A stretch of 64,000 bases of DNA from Thermoproteota archaeon (GCA_016882195.1 VGLU01000004.1:5572-69571), one strand, 5' to 3'. Counted from the first letter of the stretch, positions 1 to 43,435 are shown. Numbers and translations are program-made. The notes: generated by a model from the letters alone, not told the origin.

Positions 1-464
1 CGATTGAAAATAGGGAAGCGATCGTTATCGAAGATATTAAAGGAATACGCAAGTTGTATCAGAAGGGCAACGGTCAGGGTCGCAGATATAGGAGTATGAT
101 GAATTCTTGGTCATTCGGAGAAGTTCAGAGACAGATAGAGTACAAAGCAAATTGGTCAGGCATCCCAATTATTCGCCTAACAAAAGGCGAGACGATGGGC
201 ACCTCAACCATCTGTCCAATATGTGGGGAGAGACTTCTGAATGGACGGAACAGGATGTTGTGGTGTATTTCATGTGGTATGAAAGCGGATCGAGATGTGG
301 TTGCGGTGATCAACCAGTCTCGAAGGGGACGGGTGAGGTTCGCACGTTCCCTGCCCACTGATAAAGGGGCGAAAGGCGGGGCAGTTGAAGCTGTGATGGG
401 GAACCCGACGACTACGGTAATCCTCGGAGTCGATGCCCTGAAGTTGAGTCATCAGAAGACTTGA
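1..464 (+). CDS. tnpB: IS200/IS605-family TnpB (OrfB) C-terminal part; 5' end lies off-window
   Basis: C-terminal zinc-finger/RuvC-III region (CPICGERLLNG...WCISCGMKADRDVVAVINQ). Near-identical at protein and DNA level to the C-terminus of the full TnpB at 42063..43283. Confidence 0.8.
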   Translation, partial: IENREAIVIEDIKGIRKLYQKGNGQGRRYRSMMNSWSFGEVQRQIEYKANWSGIPIIRLTKGETMGTSTICPICGERLLNGRNRMLWCISCGMKADRDVVAVINQSRRGRVRFARSLPTDKGAKGGAVEAVMGNPTTTVILGVDALKLSHQKT

Positions 465-473
465 CAGAACCCG
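1..473 (+). mobile_element. TnpB-only IS element copy A (partial; right end ~461-473 TTGACAGAACC)
   Basis: Shares a conserved ~90-nt right-end block (GGGAACCCGACGACTACGGTAATCCTCGGAG...CTTGACAGAACC) with the copies at 12846-12925 and 43197-43273. Similarity ends right after TTGACAGAACC. Confidence 0.6.
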
Positions 474-4914: not shown

Positions 4915-6519
4915 CTACGTTACCAGCTTTGCGGCGGCCTCAACAAAACCCAGGTATGGCGGCGAGGGGCGCCCTGGTCTCGATTTGAACTCTGGGTGGG
5001 CCTGGGTCCCAAGGAAGAAGGGATGCCCCGGATGCTCCATGAACTCCACCCTCTTCTTGTCTGGTGACCAGCCGCTTAGGACGAGGCCACTCTGTTCAAG
5101 GGCCTTCCAGTACTCCGGATTGACCTCGTACCTGTGGCGGTGCCTCTCGTAGATCTCGGTAGCCCCGTAGAGCTTGTAAGCCAGTGTGCCCTTCTCGAGA
5201 ATTATTTTGTATGCACCAAGGCGCATGGTTCCGCCCATCACACCGATGGTCTTCTGCTCCGGTAGAAAGTCGATCACTGGATACTTCGTCCCAGGACTCA
5301 CCTCCGTGGTGTCCGCTCCAGCATAGCCCAGTACGTTGCGGGCGAACTCCACTATGGCGAGCTGGAACCCGTAGCATATCCCCAGGAAGGGCTTTTTGTT
5401 CTCGCGGGCATAGTTTATTGCCATTATCTTCCCCTCTGTGCCTCTGGCACCGAAGCCGGGTAGGACCATTATGCCTTGGTACTGATCGAGGGTGCAAACC
5501 GCAGAGGTGTCCTCCTCAAATTTCGTTGTCTCTATCCATTCTATGGAGGCCTGCACGCCGACCTTGGCTGCAGAGTGGTGCAGGGCCTCGGTTATGCTCA
5601 CGTAGGAGTCTGCGAGTTTCGTGTATTTCCCGCACATCCCTATCCTCACGACCTTCGAGGCCTTCATGAAGGACTTGGCGATGGAGACCCATGGGTCCCA
5701 CTCCGGCTTGCCGTCCTTTAGGCAGAGCCTCTTCACTATGTAGTTACCCATGCCCTGTTTGTCCAGTTCCAATGGCACCTGGTATATGCTCTCAGCGTCG
5801 TATGACGTGAAGACCGCATCGAGGGGCACGCTACCAAAGAGTGAGATCTTCTTCTTGACGGCCTCTTCCATCGGATCTCTGCACCTTGCCACGAGTATGT
5901 CAGGTTGTAAGCCTATCCTCCGTAACTCTTGGACGCTGTGCTGGAAGGGCTTGCTCTTCTGCTCCTTGGTCACGTCAAGGATCGGGACCAAGGCTATGTG
6001 GACGAAGAGGGTGTTCTCGAAGCCCTCCTCTAAACGCATCTGCCTAACAGCCTCGAAGAAGGGCTGGCTTTCGATGTCTCCAACCGTGCCGCCGATCTCC
6101 ACGAGAAGGACGTCGGTGCCCGCCATCTTCGCTGCAGACTTTATTCGGCTCTTTATCTCATCGGTGATGTGCGGTATGATCTGGACGCACCTGCCGAGGT
6201 ACTCGCCCTTCCGCTCCTTCGCAATTACAGAGGCGTAGACCTGACCGGTGGTGATGTTGTTGAACTTCGGGATGCTTATGTCCAAGAACCTCTCATAATG
6301 ACCAAGATCCAGGTCGGTCTCTCCCCCGTCGTCGGTGACAAAGACCTCGCCGTGCATGTATGGGTTCATCGTCCCCGCGTCCACGTTGACGTATGGATCT
6401 ATCTTAACTACAGACAGGGTGTACCCTCTTGCCTGCAGCATCTTTCCTATGGAGGAGGTCAAGATCCCCTTCCCGACGCTGCTCAGAACCCCGCCCGTCA
6501 CGAAGACGAACTTGGCCAT
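4915..6519 (-). CDS. pyrG: CTP synthase
   Basis: MAKFVFVTGGVLSSVGKGI...DPYVNVDAGTM plus a C-terminal GATase (GICYGFQ). The ORF extends to 6618, but the conserved N-terminus begins at MAKF (ATG at 6517-6519). Confidence 0.95.
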   Translation of the reverse strand: MAKFVFVTGGVLSSVGKGILTSSIGKMLQARGYTLSVVKIDPYVNVDAGTMNPYMHGEVFVTDDGGETDLDLGHYERFLDISIPKFNNITTGQVYASVIAKERKGEYLGRCVQIIPHITDEIKSRIKSAAKMAGTDVLLVEIGGTVGDIESQPFFEAVRQMRLEEGFENTLFVHIALVPILDVTKEQKSKPFQHSVQELRRIGLQPDILVARCRDPMEEAVKKKISLFGSVPLDAVFTSYDAESIYQVPLELDKQGMGNYIVKRLCLKDGKPEWDPWVSIAKSFMKASKVVRIGMCGKYTKLADSYVSITEALHHSAAKVGVQASIEWIETTKFEEDTSAVCTLDQYQGIMVLPGFGARGTEGKIMAINYARENKKPFLGICYGFQLAIVEFARNVLGYAGADTTEVSPGTKYPVIDFLPEQKTIGVMGGTMRLGAYKIILEKGTLAYKLYGATEIYERHRHRYEVNPEYWKALEQSGLVLSGWSPDKKRVEFMEHPGHPFFLGTQAHPEFKSRPGRPSPPYLGFVEAAAKLVT

Positions 6520-11265: not shown

Positions 11266-12471
11266 TCAGGTTATGCCTTCTCTCTTCAACTCGTCACACT
11301 GGTCCTTTGTGTAGCCCAAGAGGCTTGTTAGGATCTCCTCGTTGTTCTGTCCCAGTAGAGGCGCGGGCGTGAAGGTCTTTATCGGAGTCTCCGAGAACTT
11401 TATCGGACATCCTGCCACCCTTACCTTGCCGTACTGTGGCTGGTCTAGTTCCACGATCATCTCTCTTGCTTTGACGTGCTCGTCCTCAACAGCCTCCCCC
11501 ACGTTGTACACCGGGGCGGACGGGACATCATTTGCGAGGAGGAGCTTTGCGATCTCCCACCTCGTCTTGTCCCTCGTGTACTCCTCTATCAGGGTCTTCA
11601 GCGTAGCCTCGTTCTTTAGCCTGAGGTCGTTGGTGGCGAACCTTGGATCGTTTGTCCACTCAGACTTCCCTATGGCAGGGCAGAAGCGCCTCCAGATCCC
11701 TTCGTTGCCAACGGCTATTACAACGTATCCGTCCTTTGCCTTGAATATGTCGAACGGCGTTATTGAGGGGTGCTTTGCGCCTATCCGGGTCGGAACCTTG
11801 TGCTCCAGGGTGTACCGTATAACCGCGTTCTCGAGGACGGCAAGCATGGAATCCACCTGGGCGACATCTACCTTCTGACCCTTTCCGGTTGCATCGCGGT
11901 ACCTAAGCGCCGCGAGTATCCCAATGGTGAGAAACAGTCCTGATATGATGTCCCCTATGGAGGATCCTGCCCTCACCGGCGGCTTGTCAGGCCAGCCGTT
12001 CAAGTCCATAAAGCCGCCCATGGCCTGACCTATGATGTCGTAGCTGGGCCACTGGCTGTAGGGACCGTAATGACCGAAACCAGAGCCGCAGGCGTATATC
12101 AGCCTCGGGTTGACCTTTCTTAGTTCCTCGTAGCCTATCCCCCACTCGTCCATCGTGCCCGGCTTGAAGTTCTCTAATAGAACGTCGCTCTTCTTCGCCA
12201 GTTCTTTGAGGATCTCTTTGGCTTTGGGGCTCTTCAGGTTGAGCGTGAGGTCCTTGTGGTTTCTGTGCAGGCTAACGAAGTATCCGCTCTTATCCGGTCC
12301 TTGGACATTGGGGAAGAAGGGCCCCCATTCTCTGCTCATGTCGCCAAAATTTGGCCTCTCGACCTTGATAACCTCTGCACCCAAGTCTGCTAGGACCATG
12401 CCGCAATATGGTCCGAAGAGGGCGCCAGTTAGGCTTAATACGCGAATACCTTCAAGTGGTCTCTTCAACAT
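11266..12471 (-). CDS. family III CoA-transferase (CaiB/BaiF)
   Basis: IRVLSLTGALFGPYCGMVLADLGAEVIKVERP N-terminus and ~400 aa length. Confidence 0.8.
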   Translation of the reverse strand: MLKRPLEGIRVLSLTGALFGPYCGMVLADLGAEVIKVERPNFGDMSREWGPFFPNVQGPDKSGYFVSLHRNHKDLTLNLKSPKAKEILKELAKKSDVLLENFKPGTMDEWGIGYEELRKVNPRLIYACGSGFGHYGPYSQWPSYDIIGQAMGGFMDLNGWPDKPPVRAGSSIGDIISGLFLTIGILAALRYRDATGKGQKVDVAQVDSMLAVLENAVIRYTLEHKVPTRIGAKHPSITPFDIFKAKDGYVVIAVGNEGIWRRFCPAIGKSEWTNDPRFATNDLRLKNEATLKTLIEEYTRDKTRWEIAKLLLANDVPSAPVYNVGEAVEDEHVKAREMIVELDQPQYGKVRVAGCPIKFSETPIKTFTPAPLLGQNNEEILTSLLGYTKDQCDELKREGIT

Positions 12472-12530
12472 AATTCTCTCCTATGATAAAGCCGAATGAT
12501 TCGCCATATAAATAAAAATTACGGAAAATT

Positions 12531-12925
12531 GTTCTGTAAAGACTTCGTCGGATTTAAATACCTAATCTAATTGCGGGGGCGAGGCGAAAGGAGGCTACAG
12601 GGCTGATCCTAGGCTCATTTCAATTAATTGACTGCAGCGAAACGAGGAATCGCATCAACTGTACGCCCGATATGTGGGGAGAGACTCCTGAATGGGCAAG
12701 GTTGCCGTATGAGGCGTTCATACGGAATGGAGGCAGACGGGGACGCGGTTGCCATGATGAAACAGCCCTGAGGGGGCGGTTGAGGTTCGACCGTTCCCTG
12801 CCTTTAAACGATAAGGCGAAAGGCTGGGCAGTTGAAGCGGTGAGGGGGAACCCGACGACTACGGTAATCCTCGGAGCTGATGCCCCGAAGTCGACTGTTC
12901 GCCAAACGGAGAGTTGACAGAACCC
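12531..12925 (+). mobile_element. MITE-like internally deleted derivative of the TnpB IS (left end + tnpB 3' end + right end, no nuclease ORF)
   Basis: Left-end motif TGTAAAG..TCGTCGGATTTAAATAC matches 42008-42036 upstream of the full copy. Positions 12660-12925 match the tnpB zinc-finger region and right end of 43007-43273. The only ORF is an 81-aa frame-degraded remnant. Confidence 0.55.
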
Positions 12926-13012
12926 GGAAAATGCTGTTTAACGGCTCATGGCGCTCTGGATGAGCGGGATTAGGGAAGGCTGCCAAAAAATTAGATGAAA
13001 AAAGAAAGGAGG

Positions 13013-14596
13013 TTATACAGGGATGTTTCCGTGCCTCTTGGGAGCTCTGGGCTGGAGGTCTCTCTTTGACACAAAACTTTCCAGAGCCTTGATGAGCATT
13101 GGTCTTGTCTCTTTGGGCGAGATCACGGAGTCCACATAGCCCATCTGCGAGGCGATGTATGGATTCGCGAACTTGTTCCTGTAGTCTGCCACGAGTTTGT
13201 TTGTGATCTCCTTTACCTCTTCTGGGGTCTTCGCCTTCATGAGCTCGTTCCTGTGGATTATCTCGACCGCGCCCTCAGGGCCCATCACCGCTATCTCGGC
13301 CGTTGGCCACGCAAAGACTACGTCAGCGCCTAGGTGCCTGCTACACATCGCGATGTAGCCACCTCCGTACGCCTTCCTCATGATCACGGTTAGCTTTGGC
13401 ACGGAGGCCTCGGAGTAGGCATAGATTACCTTGGCACCGTGTCTGATCACACCGCCGTGCTCCTGCTTCGTACCCGGGAGGTAGCCCGGAACGTCCACAA
13501 ATGTTACGAGCGGAAGGTTGAAGGCGTCACACGTCCTCACGAACCTGGCTATCTTGTCGGACGAGTCGATATCAAGGCATCCGGCGTAGACCATGGGCTG
13601 GTTTGCGATCACGCCCACGGATCTACCGTTGAGCCTAGCTAATCCTACGACTGCGTTGGGGGCGAACTGGGCCTGGGCCTCGTAGAACGAGCCCTTGTCA
13701 AATATGTGGTTTATAACGTCGTGCACATCGTAGGGCTTCTTAGGATCTACTGGAACGACCTCGTTCAGCTCCTCCTCCATCCTGTCCGGAGGATCCGCGC
13801 TCTCCATTATGGGTGCGTCGTCCATGTTGTTGGATGGCAGGTAGCTCATCAGGTTCCTGATCTGCTTTAGGCACTCCTCATCGCTGTCGACTGCAAAGTG
13901 GGCAACGCCGCTGAGTTTCGCGTGAGCGTCCGCGCCACCCAGAGCCTCGAAGGTCACGTCCTCACCAATGGCGGCCTTGACCACCTTCGGACCGGTGATG
14001 AACATATAGCTTGTCTTTCTTACCATGAAGATGAAGTCCGCGAGGGCTGGGGAGTAGACGGCACCACCGGCGCAGGGACCCATTATGGCAATGATCTGAG
14101 GGATGACGGCCGATGCCATTACATTCCTGTAGAAGATCTCGCCGTACCCAGCCAAGGAATGTATACCCTCCTGGATCCTCGCACCGCCCGAGTCGTTCAG
14201 ACCGATGCACGGGGCTCCAGCCTTCATTGCCATGTCCTGGATCTTTGCGATCTTCTTGGCATGCATCTCGCTGAGAGAGCCACCGACGAAGGTGAAGTCC
14301 TGCGAGTAGACAAAGACAGGCCTGCCATTGATGGTGCCGTACCCTGTCACCACCGCGTCGCCGAGGACGCGCTTCTTGTCCATATCGAAGTCGTGGCACC
14401 TGTGCACGACGAGCTGATCTACCTCCGCAAAGCTACCGGGGTCGAGGAGCTTCTCCAGACGCTCCCTTGCCGTGAGCTTTCCACCCTTGTGTTGCTTCTC
14501 GATGGCCTCGGCTCCTCCACCGAGTCTTGCCTTCTCCTTGAGATCGTTCAGTTCCTTAAATTTATCAGAGAGGGGAGGGGGTGACATATCTAACAC
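13013..14596 (-). CDS. pccB: acyl-CoA carboxylase carboxyltransferase subunit (propionyl-/acetyl-CoA carboxylase beta, PccB/AccD-like)
   Basis: 527 aa with LARLNGRSVGVIANQP and ...GGARIQEG...SQDFTFVGGSL motifs. Confidence 0.85.
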   Translation of the reverse strand: MLDMSPPPLSDKFKELNDLKEKARLGGGAEAIEKQHKGGKLTARERLEKLLDPGSFAEVDQLVVHRCHDFDMDKKRVLGDAVVTGYGTINGRPVFVYSQDFTFVGGSLSEMHAKKIAKIQDMAMKAGAPCIGLNDSGGARIQEGIHSLAGYGEIFYRNVMASAVIPQIIAIMGPCAGGAVYSPALADFIFMVRKTSYMFITGPKVVKAAIGEDVTFEALGGADAHAKLSGVAHFAVDSDEECLKQIRNLMSYLPSNNMDDAPIMESADPPDRMEEELNEVVPVDPKKPYDVHDVINHIFDKGSFYEAQAQFAPNAVVGLARLNGRSVGVIANQPMVYAGCLDIDSSDKIARFVRTCDAFNLPLVTFVDVPGYLPGTKQEHGGVIRHGAKVIYAYSEASVPKLTVIMRKAYGGGYIAMCSRHLGADVVFAWPTAEIAVMGPEGAVEIIHRNELMKAKTPEEVKEITNKLVADYRNKFANPYIASQMGYVDSVISPKETRPMLIKALESFVSKRDLQPRAPKRHGNIPV

Positions 14597-38443: not shown

Positions 38444-41400
38444 CTACTGGGAGAAGAATTCCAGTCTCTTTATCCCCACGATCTCATCGAATTCTATGCC
38501 GAGAGCCTCGAGGACCTGCCCGAAGGTGGACTCTATGTGTCCCACGTATTTGTCCACATCGATCTCGTCTATCCTTGCCAGCTGGACCGGCTTAACGCCC
38601 AGGCCGCCCTGAACCTTTACGAAGGAGATTATGTCGCCGGGCTTGACCTCCTTGCCCTTATCCTCCAGCTGTTTTGCCGCCTTCACGTGCTGGGGCGTCG
38701 TCTTATGGTAGCCGGTGAGCGGCCTCGAGAGCATCACCTTGAAGGTCAGCTCGTCCAGGGAGAAGCGCCTGTTCTTAAGCCTTGTGTAGCAGTTCTGCAC
38801 GATCCCCTTTATCCTCGCCTTGGCCCTCGCGAAGTCCTGCGGGGTCTTTACCTCCTTCAGGACCTGGGTCATCTCCCCGAATGCGGACTGGATGAAGACG
38901 GGGGTGTTCCGCTTCTTCCCCATCAGCCCTTTTATGTCCACCACGCCGTTGTCCATGACGCCGAGGTAGTTCTTCTTCCTTCCGGAGAAGGTAACGAAGG
39001 TGTACCTCTTGTCCACCTCGAGGTCGATGCCGAAGCTTGATTCCGCCCAGCTGAGGAGCGCTCCTATCTGCTCCTTGGTGGGCTGGTACAAAAACAAACT
39101 ATCGGTGTCGGCATATATCACCTTGACTCCGGATTCTGTGGCCTTTTTGATGGTCTCAGTTATTATGTGCCTGCCTATGGCGGTGGTGCTGTCGGCCATC
39201 GAGAGGCAGTAGAGCGGGAATATCTCCGCACCGAAGACTCCGTAAGACTGCCCACAAGGGATTAATCTGCCATTGCGGCCAGCAAAGACAGTGTGGTTCT
39301 TTTTTGTAGTTATACAGTAAACTTGTCCATTGTATGGCATCTTAGTTTTTTTCCAATGATCTGTGTGTTGATTTATGTTTCTCCAAGTTATTCTAAATAG
39401 CTTAGCACCCTCATCATAGAATCGCCTTGATGAAGAAGCAGATGATGTCTTAAGCTTCGGGACGACGAAGTCTATCGCGTTGTATATCGCCTCTGCTGTA
39501 ACAAACCTGACTCCCCCGTTTTTATGGTCTGCGACAATGAATCTATGTTCTGGAGTGACGATCAGATCAGTAGATCTTCCGTTCTTGAAATGTAATAGAT
39601 CACCATTATAGTCGAATACCTGTGTCTCCACAACCTCGTCCACTTCTGGTTCGAGGGTAGCCGGATTTACGTTGATTACTTTGTCACCAATGTTGATATC
39701 CTTTACATTCTTTACACCATTGGTTGTGAGTATATCGGTGTCGCCTGTGAAACAAGCATTGAGGAAGACCTTAAGGGCCTGTTGCACGACCTTGTACCAG
39801 TCCCTCTCCTCCTGGGTGAGGGCGGGATCCTTGGACTTTGCCTTGAACCACTTCACCCTGACATCCTTCAGCAAGCCTATGATCAAGGCCATCAGCCCCA
39901 GCCGCTTTGTGCAGACCCAGTGTTTTGTGTCCGGGACCACGTTGGTCCGGCAGGACTCGTGGACGCACCTTACGGTCTCGTAGCTGAGGTTCCACTTTGC
40001 GATTATGCTGGGGTACAGGCTTGCAAAGTCCAGGACGACCACATCGAAGTAGACGTTGGACTCGGGCTTTATGACTATGGCGCCGTGGTACTTCTTCCCC
40101 TTGATCACCGCTGTTGTGGAGGCCTCTCCCTTCATGGCTTCTATGTCGCTCTCGCGGGGTATCAGACAGTTTCTTGCTCTGTGCTCAAAGAAGAATAGGC
40201 CCCTTATCCAGCGGGATATCCCTTGGCGCGTTACGTCCTCCATGGAGAGACGGGAGATCCTCATTATCATGGTGATGAGGTTCATTACCATGTTTGAGTT
40301 CTCGGTGGTAAGGCGCAACGCTATGAGGGAGTCCCTGAAGCAGTAGGACGCCAGGTCAAGGTAGCTGAGCTCGGAGACGGTCTTCTCTATCTGGATCTTC
40401 TTGATATTGAGGAGGGAGCTTGCCACGGCGTCGAGGGCGACCTCCCTGTATGAGTTTCCGAAGGCGTAGATCTGTATGGCGTGGTTGTGCATGAACTTGT
40501 AGAGGTCTATGTGTACCCCTGTGGGGAGGAGGGCGATCTCCCTTCCCATTATTATGGGGACCTCCTCCTTCTTCATGCCCAGGACCTGCGCGCGCCGCCA
40601 GAGGTAGTGGAGGTCGAAGTTGTCGCCGTTGAAGGTGATCACGATCGGGTAGTCCAGGAAGTACTTGAAGAGGAGCTTTATGAGGGACAACTCCTCCTCG
40701 AAGTACTCCAGCTGAACATCTTCCGGGAGTTCTGGGGGCCTGATGCCCTCCTCCACACCCATCCTCTTGAGGAGGAGGACCTTCCTCAGGCCGTCCGATC
40801 CAGCGAGGGATGCGCATATCACTTGGTTCCTGGCCACGCTCGGGTCAGGGATCCTGTCCAGCGCCTCCGTGGCCACCTCGATATCCACTGCAACGCGGCG
40901 GTAGTCGGGCACAGGGCTGATGAAGAGCGGGAACCAATCTGTGAGGGCGCTGAGGAGCTCGGGGGGTGACCTCTGGAATCTCTCCCTTATCGGCTCGAGA
41001 GGGACGGAGGGATCCTCCTTGACGAGGTTGCCGTCCTTTATTCGGTAGGAGTATCCCGGGATGAGCCCACGGTCGTAGATGTAGCAGTCGTGGTACCGGA
41101 TGTTGTCCTCCCAGGAATTCTGCAGAAGGTCCCTTATGTTGCGCCCACGGCCTCCTATGGAGAGGGGATCCCTGGCAACGACCTTTGTCATCCCTATCCT
41201 CTTGTCGTGGAGGGGGTCGTACTTCTCCACCTCTACTGTAGATTTTCTGTCGAAGCCGGGGTGGGATGCGATCTGCCTGTCCGAGAGGACCTCCTTGAGA
41301 GGAGTGTCGGTGAGGCAGTAGGGGAGGTGTCCTGTGTTGTCGTACCAGAAGACGGTTTTGCCCTTCTCGAGATCGTAGAGTTTCAGCAGCGCCTTGGCCC

Positions 41401-41704
41401 TGGAGCCGCTGTACGTGACGGAGAGCAGGGAGAGGGGACCCGCATTCTTTGGGGTCTCGGCCTCGAAGATGGTCCTCTCGACGACCTCCTCCTGCTCGGG
41501 TCCCTCGGCATACTCTTCTGGCCCCAGTTCCTCCGGCTCTGCCTCCACTTCATCGTAGGGCTCTTCTTCGGGATACTGCCCCTCCCTCTGGGAGGTTTCC
41601 TCGGCTTTCTCTGCCTTGACAGGTTCCCTCCGGGGGCTCTCGGGGGGCTCGGATGGTTTCGAGTCTCCCTTCTTGCCGGGCATGAACCTATCAAGACTTA
41701 CCAT
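38444..41704 (-). CDS. polB: family-B DNA polymerase containing a mini-intein in motif B and an acidic N-terminal extension
   Basis: Exo I VAVDIEVATE, motif A LDFASLYPSII, motif C IYADTDS. Motif B is split as KVFLNA|intein|SYGVFG. Confidence 0.9.
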   Translation of the reverse strand: MVSLDRFMPGKKGDSKPSEPPESPRREPVKAEKAEETSQREGQYPEEEPYDEVEAEPEELGPEEYAEGPEQEEVVERTIFEAETPKNAGPLSLLSVTYSGSRAKALLKLYDLEKGKTVFWYDNTGHLPYCLTDTPLKEVLSDRQIASHPGFDRKSTVEVEKYDPLHDKRIGMTKVVARDPLSIGGRGRNIRDLLQNSWEDNIRYHDCYIYDRGLIPGYSYRIKDGNLVKEDPSVPLEPIRERFQRSPPELLSALTDWFPLFISPVPDYRRVAVDIEVATEALDRIPDPSVARNQVICASLAGSDGLRKVLLLKRMGVEEGIRPPELPEDVQLEYFEEELSLIKLLFKYFLDYPIVITFNGDNFDLHYLWRRAQVLGMKKEEVPIIMGREIALLPTGVHIDLYKFMHNHAIQIYAFGNSYREVALDAVASSLLNIKKIQIEKTVSELSYLDLASYCFRDSLIALRLTTENSNMVMNLITMIMRISRLSMEDVTRQGISRWIRGLFFFEHRARNCLIPRESDIEAMKGEASTTAVIKGKKYHGAIVIKPESNVYFDVVVLDFASLYPSIIAKWNLSYETVRCVHESCRTNVVPDTKHWVCTKRLGLMALIIGLLKDVRVKWFKAKSKDPALTQEERDWYKVVQQALKVFLNACFTGDTDILTTNGVKNVKDINIGDKVINVNPATLEPEVDEVVETQVFDYNGDLLHFKNGRSTDLIVTPEHRFIVADHKNGGVRFVTAEAIYNAIDFVVPKLKTSSASSSRRFYDEGAKLFRITWRNINQHTDHWKKTKMPYNGQVYCITTKKNHTVFAGRNGRLIPCGQSYGVFGAEIFPLYCLSMADSTTAIGRHIITETIKKATESGVKVIYADTDSLFLYQPTKEQIGALLSWAESSFGIDLEVDKRYTFVTFSGRKKNYLGVMDNGVVDIKGLMGKKRNTPVFIQSAFGEMTQVLKEVKTPQDFARAKARIKGIVQNCYTRLKNRRFSLDELTFKVMLSRPLTGYHKTTPQHVKAAKQLEDKGKEVKPGDIISFVKVQGGLGVKPVQLARIDEIDVDKYVGHIESTFGQVLEALGIEFDEIVGIKRLEFFSQ
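39248..39754 (-). other. 169-aa mini-intein (no homing-endonuclease domain)
   Basis: Begins CFTGDTDIL (block A), has TPEHRF (block B) and VYCITTKKNHTVFAGRNG (block F). Ends ...LIPCGQ followed by Ser. Removing it restores K-x3-N-A-S-Y-G. Confidence 0.7.
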
Positions 41705-41971: not shown

Positions 41972-42004
41972 TTTAGTCCCTCGCTGTTTATATTATTTAT
42001 CAGA

Positions 42005-43273
42005 TTTTGTAAACTTTTCGTTGGATTTAAATACATGACCAATTGTTGGGAAACCATAATTTGTGATAGCTATAAAGAGTGTAAGGCAACGTTACATTCC
42101 ATCATGTATAATACTATGCTTAATGGAGCAATTCAGACTCATGATCAATGAGTGTATAGAAATAGGTATGACGAGTAACATTTCTTCGCTGAAAGCGCTC
42201 TCTATGAGGGCATATCATAAACTTGAGCCTTATAATGTGCCATCTTACTACAAGCTTTGTGCCATTTCAAGAGCGGCAGTGATTCTTACGTCAAGAAGGA
42301 AGTCGCTACGAAGGGGCATGCCGACTAAGAGCCCTTACGTCATGCGGCGGCATCTTACCTCATGCTATGGATTCAAATTCATCGGTAATGCTATAAGAAT
42401 ACCGGTGGGGCATAGAGAGTTCTTTGAAATTGAGTTAAACAAACACACTCAAGAGATTCTCTCCGACCCTGCCTTGAGGGTGCGTTCCTTTACACTAACG
42501 AACACCCATTTGAGCATCTGCTACTCGAAGGATGTTCAGGAACTGGAATGTGCAGATATCGCTGGCTTGGACAGAAATCTGAGAAACATCACCTATGGCA
42601 ACGATCAGCATGTAGTAAAATACAACCTATCAGAAGCAGTTAAGATAGCCAGGCGGACGAGCAAGATCATTGCTTCCTTCAAAAGGAAGGACATGCGGAT
42701 AAGGAAGAGGATAGCGTCGAAGTATGGACGGAGACAAAGGAACAGGGTCAACCAACTGCTTCATAATACAACCAAAGACATTGTTGAAAGGGCGTTTGCG
42801 AAAAGGGAGGCGATAGTTCTTGAGGATATTAGAGGCATTAGGAAATTGTATCGAAAGGGAAACGGACAAAGTCACAGATACAGAGGCATAATGAACGCTT
42901 GGTCATTCTGCGAGGTGCAGAGACAGATAGAGTACAAGGCGAAATGGAAAGGCATCCCAGTAATGCGCCTATCCAAAGAGGAAACTATGGGCACCTCCAC
43001 CCTCTGCCCGATATGTGGGGAGAGACTCCTGAATGGGCAATATATTAGCCGCCAGTTGTGGTGTCCTTCATGTGGAATGAAAGCAGACCGGGACATAGTT
43101 GCTGTATTAAATCAATCGCATAGGGGACGGGTGAGGTTCGCCCGTTCCCTGCCATGTGATGATAAGGCGAAAGGCGGGGCAGCTGAAGCTATGAGGGGGA
43201 ACCCTCTACGGATGGAGGTAATCCTCAGAGTCGATGCCCCGAAGTCGAGTCATGATAAAGACTTGACAGAACC
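42005..43273 (+). mobile_element. complete TnpB-only IS200/IS605-family element copy C
   Basis: Left-end motif TGTAAAC..TCGTTGGATTTAAATAC (shared with 12535-12563), tnpB, right end ending CTTGACAGAACC. Lies 38 nt upstream of a tRNA gene. Confidence 0.65.
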
Positions 43274-43283
43274 TAAGCTTTAA
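42063..43283 (+). CDS. tnpB: TnpB (IS200/IS605 OrfB)
   Basis: 406 aa with RuvC-like core and zinc finger CPICGERLLNGQ...WCPSCGMKADRDIVAVLNQ. Confidence 0.85.
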   Translation: MIAIKSVRQRYIPSCIILCLMEQFRLMINECIEIGMTSNISSLKALSMRAYHKLEPYNVPSYYKLCAISRAAVILTSRRKSLRRGMPTKSPYVMRRHLTSCYGFKFIGNAIRIPVGHREFFEIELNKHTQEILSDPALRVRSFTLTNTHLSICYSKDVQELECADIAGLDRNLRNITYGNDQHVVKYNLSEAVKIARRTSKIIASFKRKDMRIRKRIASKYGRRQRNRVNQLLHNTTKDIVERAFAKREAIVLEDIRGIRKLYRKGNGQSHRYRGIMNAWSFCEVQRQIEYKAKWKGIPVMRLSKEETMGTSTLCPICGERLLNGQYISRQLWCPSCGMKADRDIVAVLNQSHRGRVRFARSLPCDDKAKGGAAEAMRGNPLRMEVILRVDAPKSSHDKDLTEPKL

Positions 43284-43311: not shown

Positions 43312-43424
43312 GGGCCCGTCGTCTAGTCAGGATTAGGACGCAGATCTCGCAGACGTGACGGTTTTGCGAGGGCGTAAGCCTGCGGAGCCTGAAGTCCTGG
43401 GTTCAAATCCCAGCGGGCCCGCCA
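43312..43424 (+). tRNA. intron-containing tRNA (~34-nt intron in the anticodon arm); probable tRNA-Arg, anticodon ambiguous (GCG or CGC)
   Basis: Acceptor GGGCCCG/CGGGCCC, discriminator G, encoded CCA. D-arm has A14, GG, A20. T-loop GGGUUCAAAUCCC. Two possible 7-nt loops, CUCGCAG and CUGCGGA, flank the extra 34 nt. Acceptor and D-arm closely resemble the tRNA-Arg(CCG) at 45970-46061. Confidence 0.65.
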
Positions 43425-43435
43425 ACCTTCTGGCG

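Follow-up and report, generated by a model that had tools for sequence, protein, structure and literature searches.

A gene-less 395-bp miniature of an archaeal TnpB element with terminal inverted repeats and an 8-bp target-site duplication

TnpB is the ancestor of Cas12, and its role has so far been explained by the peel-and-paste transposition of IS200/IS605 elements, in which the target site of the transposase doubles as the TAM. A 64,000-nt stretch of DNA from a Thermoproteota archaeon (hereafter the window) contains a segment of about 395 bp that resembles both ends of a tnpB element. Such a segment might be the decayed remainder of a local copy or a mobile element in its own right. If it is mobile, two further questions arise: what kind of transposase moves it, and what is the interior that it carries along?

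Extent and content of the miniature

Two tnpB copies on the + strand of the window can be compared with the segment. The full-length reference copy (42003-43273) carries an ORF (42063-43283) for a 406-aa protein that matches Pfam Cas12f1-like_TNB and NCBIfam guided_TnpB. This protein aligns to the ISDra2 TnpB structures 8exa and 8h1j, with the RuvC D/E/D residues and both CxxC pairs in place and no extra domain. The outer left repeat of the element is degenerate (GATTT in place of GGTTC), its terminal inverted repeats (TIRs) agree at 12 of 22 positions, and it lacks a target-site duplication (TSD). Its ORF extends 10 nt beyond the right end, and the stop codon is flanking DNA. The other copy is the 3' part of a tnpB element cut by the window start (1-471), recognised by alignment and by a match to the RNA scaffold model described below (323-471). 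Its frame is open for the last ~160 aa, and its right end lies at 471.

The miniature was originally placed at 12531-12925. Three independent copies and one empty site refine these bounds to 12530-12924 and bear out the estimated size of ~395 bp. The predicted left-end signature agrees with that of the full element at 23 of 27 positions, and 12532-12561 is identical at 25 of 30 positions to 42005-42034, the left end of the full tnpB element. The last ~310 nt correspond to the tnpB 3' end and right end of the same element. Here 12665-12894 and 43006-43248 share 76% identity (E ~1e-42), and the 3' part of the miniature is 75% identical to the third copy at window 216-473. In a three-way alignment, the miniature, the full copy and the third copy all terminate in ...TTGACAGAACC and are unrelated beyond it. 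Pairwise alignment with 42005-43273 carries the similarity at both ends to the termini of the full element, as a deletion derivative that keeps both ends should.

The miniature retains TIRs, a left-end TATA-like motif, part of the tnpB 3' coding region in degraded form and a structured RNA of ~155 nt. On the + strand, it begins with the left TIR TGTTCTGTAAAGACTTCGTCGG (12530-12551), which matches the reverse complement of 12903-12924, GGTTCTGTCAACTCTCCGTTTG, at 15 of 22 positions. The TATA-box-like motif TTTAAATA at 12553-12560 is a putative archaeal promoter and is invariant in all four copies of the miniature. The full copy has it as well (42027-42034, 29 nt ahead of the GTG at 42063), and the soil miniatures introduced below lack it. 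The next 54 nt (12562-12615) form an interior deletion-junction segment that is conserved among the miniature copies at 0.76-0.89, and whose similarity to either full copy is no better than that of shuffled sequence. It is followed by a frame-degraded remnant of tnpB 3' coding sequence (12616-12770), which includes the first CxxC of the zinc finger (12665-12699) and aligns with window 161-244 and 42975-43040.

According to the original prediction, the element jumps from its left end straight to the zinc finger. The tnpB 3' region is indeed kept, but sensitive local alignment traces the tnpB-derived part upstream to ~12616, so that homology begins ~50 nt before the zinc finger. The remainder of the miniature is a structured RNA core resembling an omega-RNA scaffold (12770-12924, + strand), which matches a covariance model with 147.8 bits and stops exactly at the right end. 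The right TIR (...GTTGACAGAACC, 12903-12924) is also the 3' arm of the last scaffold hairpin (helix 7).

The remnant ORF of 81 aa is present (12672-12917), and the zinc-finger and C-terminal remnants lie in different frames. This ORF has no Pfam or NCBIfam match and no record as a called gene in the databases searched. Only fragmented ORFs without a family match are found in the miniature, which agrees with the predicted absence of a nuclease gene. The alignments and the structure model also sustain its description as a gene-less derivative that combines both transposon ends with an RNA-scaffold region.

Sister copies, an empty site and the probable type of transposase

Metagenomes were scanned with a left-end pattern of 17 specified bases, which yielded 66 loci. 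Most of these are chance matches, and only three held up as real (L103, L077 and L075). L103 carries the entire 395-bp architecture with 94% identity over its full length, and L077 is an allelic fragment of the same locus. L075 has the 395-bp architecture at 83% identity and is flanked on both sides by TAACTTCA. The flanks and neighbouring genes of L103/L077 and of L075 are unrelated to those in the window. A four-way alignment gives an identity of 0.94-0.97 for the left end, with a drop to 0.3-0.4 exactly outside 12530 and 12924.

An empty site (L116) was reached through close homologues of the adjacent CoA-transferase, with 95% protein identity. Its intergenic region is free of the element and reads ...AAAAATTA CGGAAAAC GCTGTTTAACGG..., with the 8-mer present once, whereas the filled site in the window reads ...AAAAATTA CGGAAAAT [395 bp] CGGAAAAT GCTGTTTAACGG.... 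This comparison establishes that the 395-bp unit was inserted with an 8-bp duplication, whose left and right copies (12522-12529 and 12925-12932) are identical. The original prediction that such miniatures could be mobilised in trans is supported by this empty site and by the occurrence of the 395-bp architecture at three unrelated loci. The segment at 12530-12924 is a recently mobile MITE derived from a TnpB element. It is 395 bp long and non-coding, has TIRs and a TSD with an empty site, and exists at multiple loci in copies that share their ends with tnpB elements.

The insertion site is located 51 nt upstream of the CoA-transferase start codon (window 12503-12529, - strand). The miniature lies just beyond the minus-strand TATA-like sequence TTTTTATTTATAT, and the core promoter of the CoA-transferase gene is seemingly spared. 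Three independent Logan assemblies (L038, L040 and L041) all stop at window 12572, inside the left end of the miniature, which is the behaviour expected for a repeat or a polymorphic insertion.

The family extends well past these copies. A scan of a genome collection with the conserved core of the 3' region returned 31 archaeal loci, in soil MAGs labelled Bathyarchaeota, Crenarchaeota or Thaumarchaeota. A tnpB gene lies upstream in only 4 of the 31. The other loci comprise ~25 gene-less elements, most of them 360-410 bp long, that begin with GGCACTGTCAACTCTTCGGTTG and finish with CAACCGAAGACTTGACAGAACC. These soil elements are a second, independent miniature lineage. The soil loci (L001-L037) have the same TIRs, 8-bp TSDs and scaffold as the window miniature, plus an extra scaffold hairpin, and the soil miniatures share a conserved 5' half of ~200 nt. 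Some soil copies have unusual ends. In L022 (- strand), the left end of the element at 4929-5339 contains a tandem triplication of CTGTCAAA (CTGTCAAACTGTCAAACTGTCAAC), and the element is flanked by a perfect 8-bp duplication, AAACCCTA, despite this triplicated end. Orthologous copies in three MAGs (L018, +1956; L021, -1393; L025, -7386) have a left end swapped for unrelated sequence and carry an 11-nt direct repeat, TCGGGTTTAGC, on both flanks.

The ends of the family are uniform. The TIRs of the miniature are ~22 bp long (GGYWCTGT...), and in relatives the two repeats match at up to 19 of 22 positions. The end consensus of the family is GGYWCTGTCAAS, with G at position 7 in all 20 of the right ends compared. 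Direct flank repeats of 8 bp (at most one mismatch) surround 15 copies, each with a different 8-mer, and these include a full-length tnpB element (L029, TCCACCTA). A second full-length tnpB element (L121, TGGGATTC) was later added as a sixteenth case. Chance repetition of 8-mers was considered and is ruled out by the 15 copies with different 8-mers and by the empty site. The sequence TGTTC that precedes TGTAAAG was also considered, as an IS605-style target; the alignment of copies and the empty site show that it is the tip of the inverted repeat.

The original prediction implied ends of the IS200/IS605 type, which are contradicted by the ~22-bp TIRs and the 8-bp TSD. Elements of the IS200/IS605 and IS607 families and TnpB-only elements have been described as lacking both TIRs and TSDs (PMC3627910, PMC13565253). 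The miniature has both, and its left end does not abut the candidate TAM; what it shares with IS200/IS605 elements is its content, a TnpB-family remnant. Since TIRs and TSDs are absent from IS200/IS605 elements by definition, a Y1 TnpA is not a likely mobiliser. From the TIRs and 8-bp duplications around miniatures and full tnpB copies alike, we infer a DDE-type transposase that acts in trans. Altae-Tran et al. report six DDE-associated TnpB branches that have inverted terminal repeats, as well as solo TnpBs mobilised in trans (PMC10691335).

[quoted passage not shown] The ends described here share the GG tip and the 8-bp duplication with archaeal IS6-like ends, carry CTGT at positions 5-8 and likewise reach at least 18 bp. 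In size and gene content they depart from this family, which has a single transposase ORF in ~0.7-0.9 kb, because the full elements are ~1.27 kb long and carry tnpB only. The mobiliser is probably a DDE-type transposase, which would be IS6-like as judged solely by end sequence and duplication length.

The window and ~0.9 Mb of retrieved loci were searched for a transposase gene with matching ends, and none was found. A tblastn search of the window and all loci with an IS26 Tnp query gave nothing credible, at a low sensitivity, since the identity of archaeal IS6-like enzymes to IS26 does not exceed 25% (PMC6807381). The corresponding search with an IS608 TnpA query, again of the window and all loci, found no Y1 transposase. 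A scan for archaeal IS6 motifs (E..F...K.R / W...F) gave nothing credible, and fuzzy TIR searches and a scan for TIR pairs with a TSD recovered known copies only. The neighbourhoods of the TnpB homologues P0120, P0064, P0118 and P0036 contain no DDE, Y1 or serine recombinase gene.

A one-sided target motif and a structured RNA

DDE transposases usually show symmetric target preferences. In the present family, a motif occurs on one side of the insertion. Position -2 before the left duplication is T in 15 of 15 copies (P ~3e-9), position -1 is a purine in all 15, and position -3 is T in 11. The first duplicated base is a pyrimidine in 13 of the 15. No mirror motif is found beyond the right duplication copy in these 15 copies with a TSD. 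In the window, this 5'-TTR is the TTA at 12519-12521, a candidate TAM or target motif directly 5' of the duplicated target, and the empty site L116 has TTA at the same place. The one-sided motif is the least understood feature of the family and is unusual for a DDE transposase.

Between the TTR and the left end of the element lie the duplicated 8 bp. In the empty allele, the TTR is followed by exactly the sequence that borders the right end on its 3' side in the filled allele, where that sequence is preceded by ...GAACC. The TTR is therefore located where a TnpB TAM would lie, and it can be regarded as a candidate TAM on these positional grounds. The layout of the empty allele would then be that of a TAM followed by a guide-matching target, which is the homing geometry of IS605 TnpB, apparently transferred to an element with TIRs and a TSD. 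The right copy of the duplication (12925-12932) would correspond to the putative first 8 nt of a guide segment (~12925-12944).

The right-hand duplication is missing in about a third of the copies (L103, L010, L026, L030, L033, L108, L119, L122 and the full copy in the window). Five of these (L103, L026, L030, L108 and L119) retain TTR-N8 at the left, which indicates that the right flank was altered after insertion by rearrangement, inter-copy recombination or repair. The missing duplications are also compatible with replicative rearrangements of the IS6-like kind, which is speculation.

The last ~155 nt of 34 copies, comprising tnpB-linked elements, soil miniatures and window-type miniatures, were aligned to define the structure of the interior. 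RNAalifold predicts a multi-helix structure, which amounts to 47 pairs when soil-specific and terminal hairpins are added by hand. Standard pairs occupy 94.1% of the cells in this alignment, compared to 31-44% when the partners are slid by 1-3 columns. Compensatory changes on both sides are seen at 14 pairs, and the covariation score is 0.176 versus 0.02-0.05. One long-range helix has been wholly re-coded between lineages (CUGGG/CCCCG versus CUCUC/GAGAG). The soil gene-less copies taken by themselves show 93.9% pairing and 6 compensatory pairs. Among the three copies of the window-type miniature there is no compensatory change; these copies are too similar to one another, and their youth could explain the conservation. 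Paired columns are more conserved than unpaired columns in the alignment.

The predicted fold is specific to one strand. The minimum free energy of 12771-12924 on the + strand is -64.5 kcal/mol (z = -3.5), while the complement has z = -0.8. Within the window, the covariance model built from the alignment matches 12770-12924, 323-471 and 43121-43273 and nothing else. It also finds tnpB 3' ends that were not used for training, in L108, L119, L121 and L122, and each of these matches stops at the right end. No Rfam family matches the whole window at the gathering threshold or 12400-13050 in E-value mode.

OMEGA systems combine a TnpB that has the D/E/D residues and a zinc finger with a structured RNA that overlaps the tnpB 3' end on the tnpB strand and ends at the right end of the element. 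Such a protein is encoded at 42063-43283 and not by the miniature, and such an RNA region is present. The 155-nt structure resembles an omega-RNA scaffold in its modelled position, strand and behaviour. It may be expressed and used by a TnpB acting in trans. PATEs often encode omega-RNAs that require TnpB in trans (10.1101/2023.03.14.532601, Meers et al.). The scaffold of the miniature is only ~75% identical to those of both tnpB copies in the window, which makes its compatibility with their proteins putative, and a closer tnpB parent was not found.

Proposed mechanism, alternatives and related systems

The explanation that we consider likely is that 12530-12924 arose as a MITE by internal deletion of a TnpB-only element, is mobilised by a DDE-type transposase, and carries a scaffold that serves as an omega-RNA for TnpB in trans. 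Under this model, the parent would have been a TnpB-only element of a large archaeal family, from which internal deletion produced the 395-bp form. A DDE-type transposase would recognise the TIRs and move the miniature in trans. Insertion after 5'-TTA duplicated the 8 bp CGGAAAAT, and sister copies entered other sites with other 8-bp duplications. The motif TTTAAATA may be an archaeal TATA box that normally drives a leaderless tnpB mRNA. In the miniature, this left-end promoter would drive the scaffold instead and read into the flank. The resulting omega-RNA would have a guide composed of the duplicated 8 bp and the sequence downstream of it. TnpB from a full-length copy could load this RNA, and an intact TnpB gene is available in the same window (42063-43283). 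Presumably, the loaded TnpB would cut empty alleles, which carry TTR and the same sequence, and so favour retention or copying of the MITE.

A broader reading is possible and is offered tentatively, with the odds somewhat against it. A large archaeal TnpB/omega-RNA family may reside in IS6-like DDE transposons and not in IS200/IS605 or IS607 elements, with insertion or survival coupled to the nuclease through a TTR TAM, and its MITEs may exploit both the transposase (via the TIRs) and TnpB (via the omega-RNA). The family in question spans Methanomethylicia-like MAGs and MAGs labelled Bathyarchaeota or Thaumarchaeota. If this reading is true, a DDE-type, probably replicative, IS6-like transposon of archaea has taken over the homing logic of TnpB. 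The family would then provide a natural test of whether the transposase dictates the choice of TAM or whether selection by way of the nuclease does. Guide-RNA-only miniatures would also be able to persist and spread on their own, and MITEs of the present type would be natural two-component 'guide-only' mobile elements.

Other explanations account for parts of these observations. The MITE might be purely parasitic and its interior inert, with a fold that was inherited and has been conserved through youth or through the needs of the DNA ends. The three window-type copies without compensatory substitutions fit this idea, as does the fact that expression of the scaffold is something we infer. In addition, the last hairpin and the right TIR share sequence, which accounts at the DNA level for some of the conservation. 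However, the diverged soil relatives maintain 94% pairing with 6 compensatory pairs and have gained a lineage-specific extra hairpin, and conservation is higher in paired than in unpaired columns. Two independent lineages have kept the same 3' portion of ~250-300 nt, whereas a TIR-driven transposase should need only the ends. The one-sided TTR is also hard to explain without a TnpB-type step. An inert interior is thus unlikely, though it retains a real share of the probability. A different possibility is that the element never moved as a miniature, and that a full tnpB copy suffered a single local deletion and decayed where it stood. Degraded IS copies are expected to arise in this way by default, and decay is also seen at the outer end of the full copy (42003-43273). 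Local decay is refuted by the 395-bp architecture, including the 54-nt junction segment, at two other unrelated loci and by the empty site with its perfect TSD, and its residual probability is negligible.

The remaining alternatives concern the enzyme. The RuvC domain of TnpB has an RNase H fold, which is common to DDE enzymes, and TnpB might itself be the transposase, acting on the TIRs through this domain. More than 2000 homologues are solo tnpB genes, the sampled loci have no transposase nearby, and the one-sided TTR links insertion sites to a TnpB-like recognition step. Yet the protein aligns with ISDra2 TnpB without any extra domain, and a known DDE family has matching ends and the same duplication length. 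Moreover, every TnpB characterised so far acts as an RNA-guided nuclease, and transposition can proceed without it (PMC3627910, PMC10691335, 10.1101/2023.03.14.532601), which leaves this proposal very improbable. Still fainter is the case for a classical IS200/IS605 PATE, moved by a Y1 TnpA through single-strand peel-and-paste beside a tetra- or pentanucleotide target. The interior of the miniature does derive from tnpB and an omega-RNA-like region, a short conserved TTR lies to the left of every copy, and PATEs that bear omega-RNAs are known. These likenesses are outweighed by the ~22-bp TIRs and the 8-bp duplication proven by the empty site, in a comparison with a family that by definition has neither. 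In addition, 8 bp separate the TTR from the left end, and tblastn with the IS608 TnpA query revealed no Y1 transposase.

A MITE that supplies an omega-RNA and borrows its proteins, as favoured here, has relatives among several known systems. The PATEs of Geobacillus (ISGst, Meers et al. 2023) and Haloquadratum likewise have no protein gene, keep both ends and the omega-RNA region, and receive transposase and TnpB from elsewhere. The guide-only derivative as a concept is therefore already known from PATEs. These elements differ in having asymmetric hairpin ends, no TSD and a Y1 TnpA that acts beside the TAM, while the miniature has TIRs, an 8-bp TSD and a TTR 8 bp away. TnpB-only elements of the IS1341 group are like the parent of the miniature in encoding a single TnpB (RuvC D/E/D, zinc finger) with a 3'-overlapping structured RNA that ends at the right end. 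This group has been published as lacking TIRs and TSDs, and the present family has both, including in the full-length elements L029 and L121.

Closer in their ends are the DDE-associated TnpB branches (Altae-Tran et al. 2023), for example, the IS630-linked DDE-6. These have symmetrical inverted ends and a tnpB 3' end within 250 bp of the end of the element, and solo TnpBs are presumed to move with the help of an enzyme supplied in trans. Unlike them, the present elements have no linked DDE gene, and their ends and 8-bp TSD suggest an IS6-like enzyme rather than IS630, which makes a TA duplication. No description of miniature omega-RNA-only derivatives of DDE-associated TnpB elements was found in the literature examined. 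Archaeal IS6/IS26-like elements and their MITEs, two of which are recorded in ISfinder, share the 8-bp duplication, GG tip, G7, cTGT, TIRs of at least 18 bp and abundance in archaea. In contrast, IS6 members are ~0.8 kb long and have one DDE gene; only one is known to carry a passenger gene, and no target preference has been described for them. The present family has tnpB and an omega-RNA-like region as cargo and a one-sided target motif, and no IS6-type transposase was seen. Fanzor1 genes, which reside in eukaryotic DNA transposons with TIRs and TSDs, offer another example of a TnpB-family nuclease in transposons of the cut-and-paste type. Their carriers come from eukaryotes or viruses and use transposases of other superfamilies, unlike the archaeal elements described here with their typical compact TnpB.

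The surprise lies in the transposition signature of the whole family. A compact, typical TnpB family with inverted repeats and 8-bp duplications still appears to keep the geometry of RNA-guided homing. There is also a consequence for annotation, as labels such as 'IS200/IS605 family TnpB' on archaeal MAGs may mask another type of transposon.

Some further features of the window concern its host and the surroundings of the full tnpB copy. An identical stretch is present in JGI metagenome 3300020074, and the names carried by close homologues of the TnpB and CoA-transferase proteins suggest Methanomethylicia/Verstraetearchaeota. A probable intron-containing tRNA gene (~43316-43425), with acceptor stem, T-arm and encoded CCA, follows the right end of the full copy at a distance of ~40 nt. 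Its Rfam tRNA match is only 20.3 bits, and ARAGORN makes no call. A family-B DNA polymerase ORF of 1086 aa (38444-41704, - strand) has an apparent intein-like insert, recognised only by eye (CFTGDTDILT ... HTVFAGRNG).
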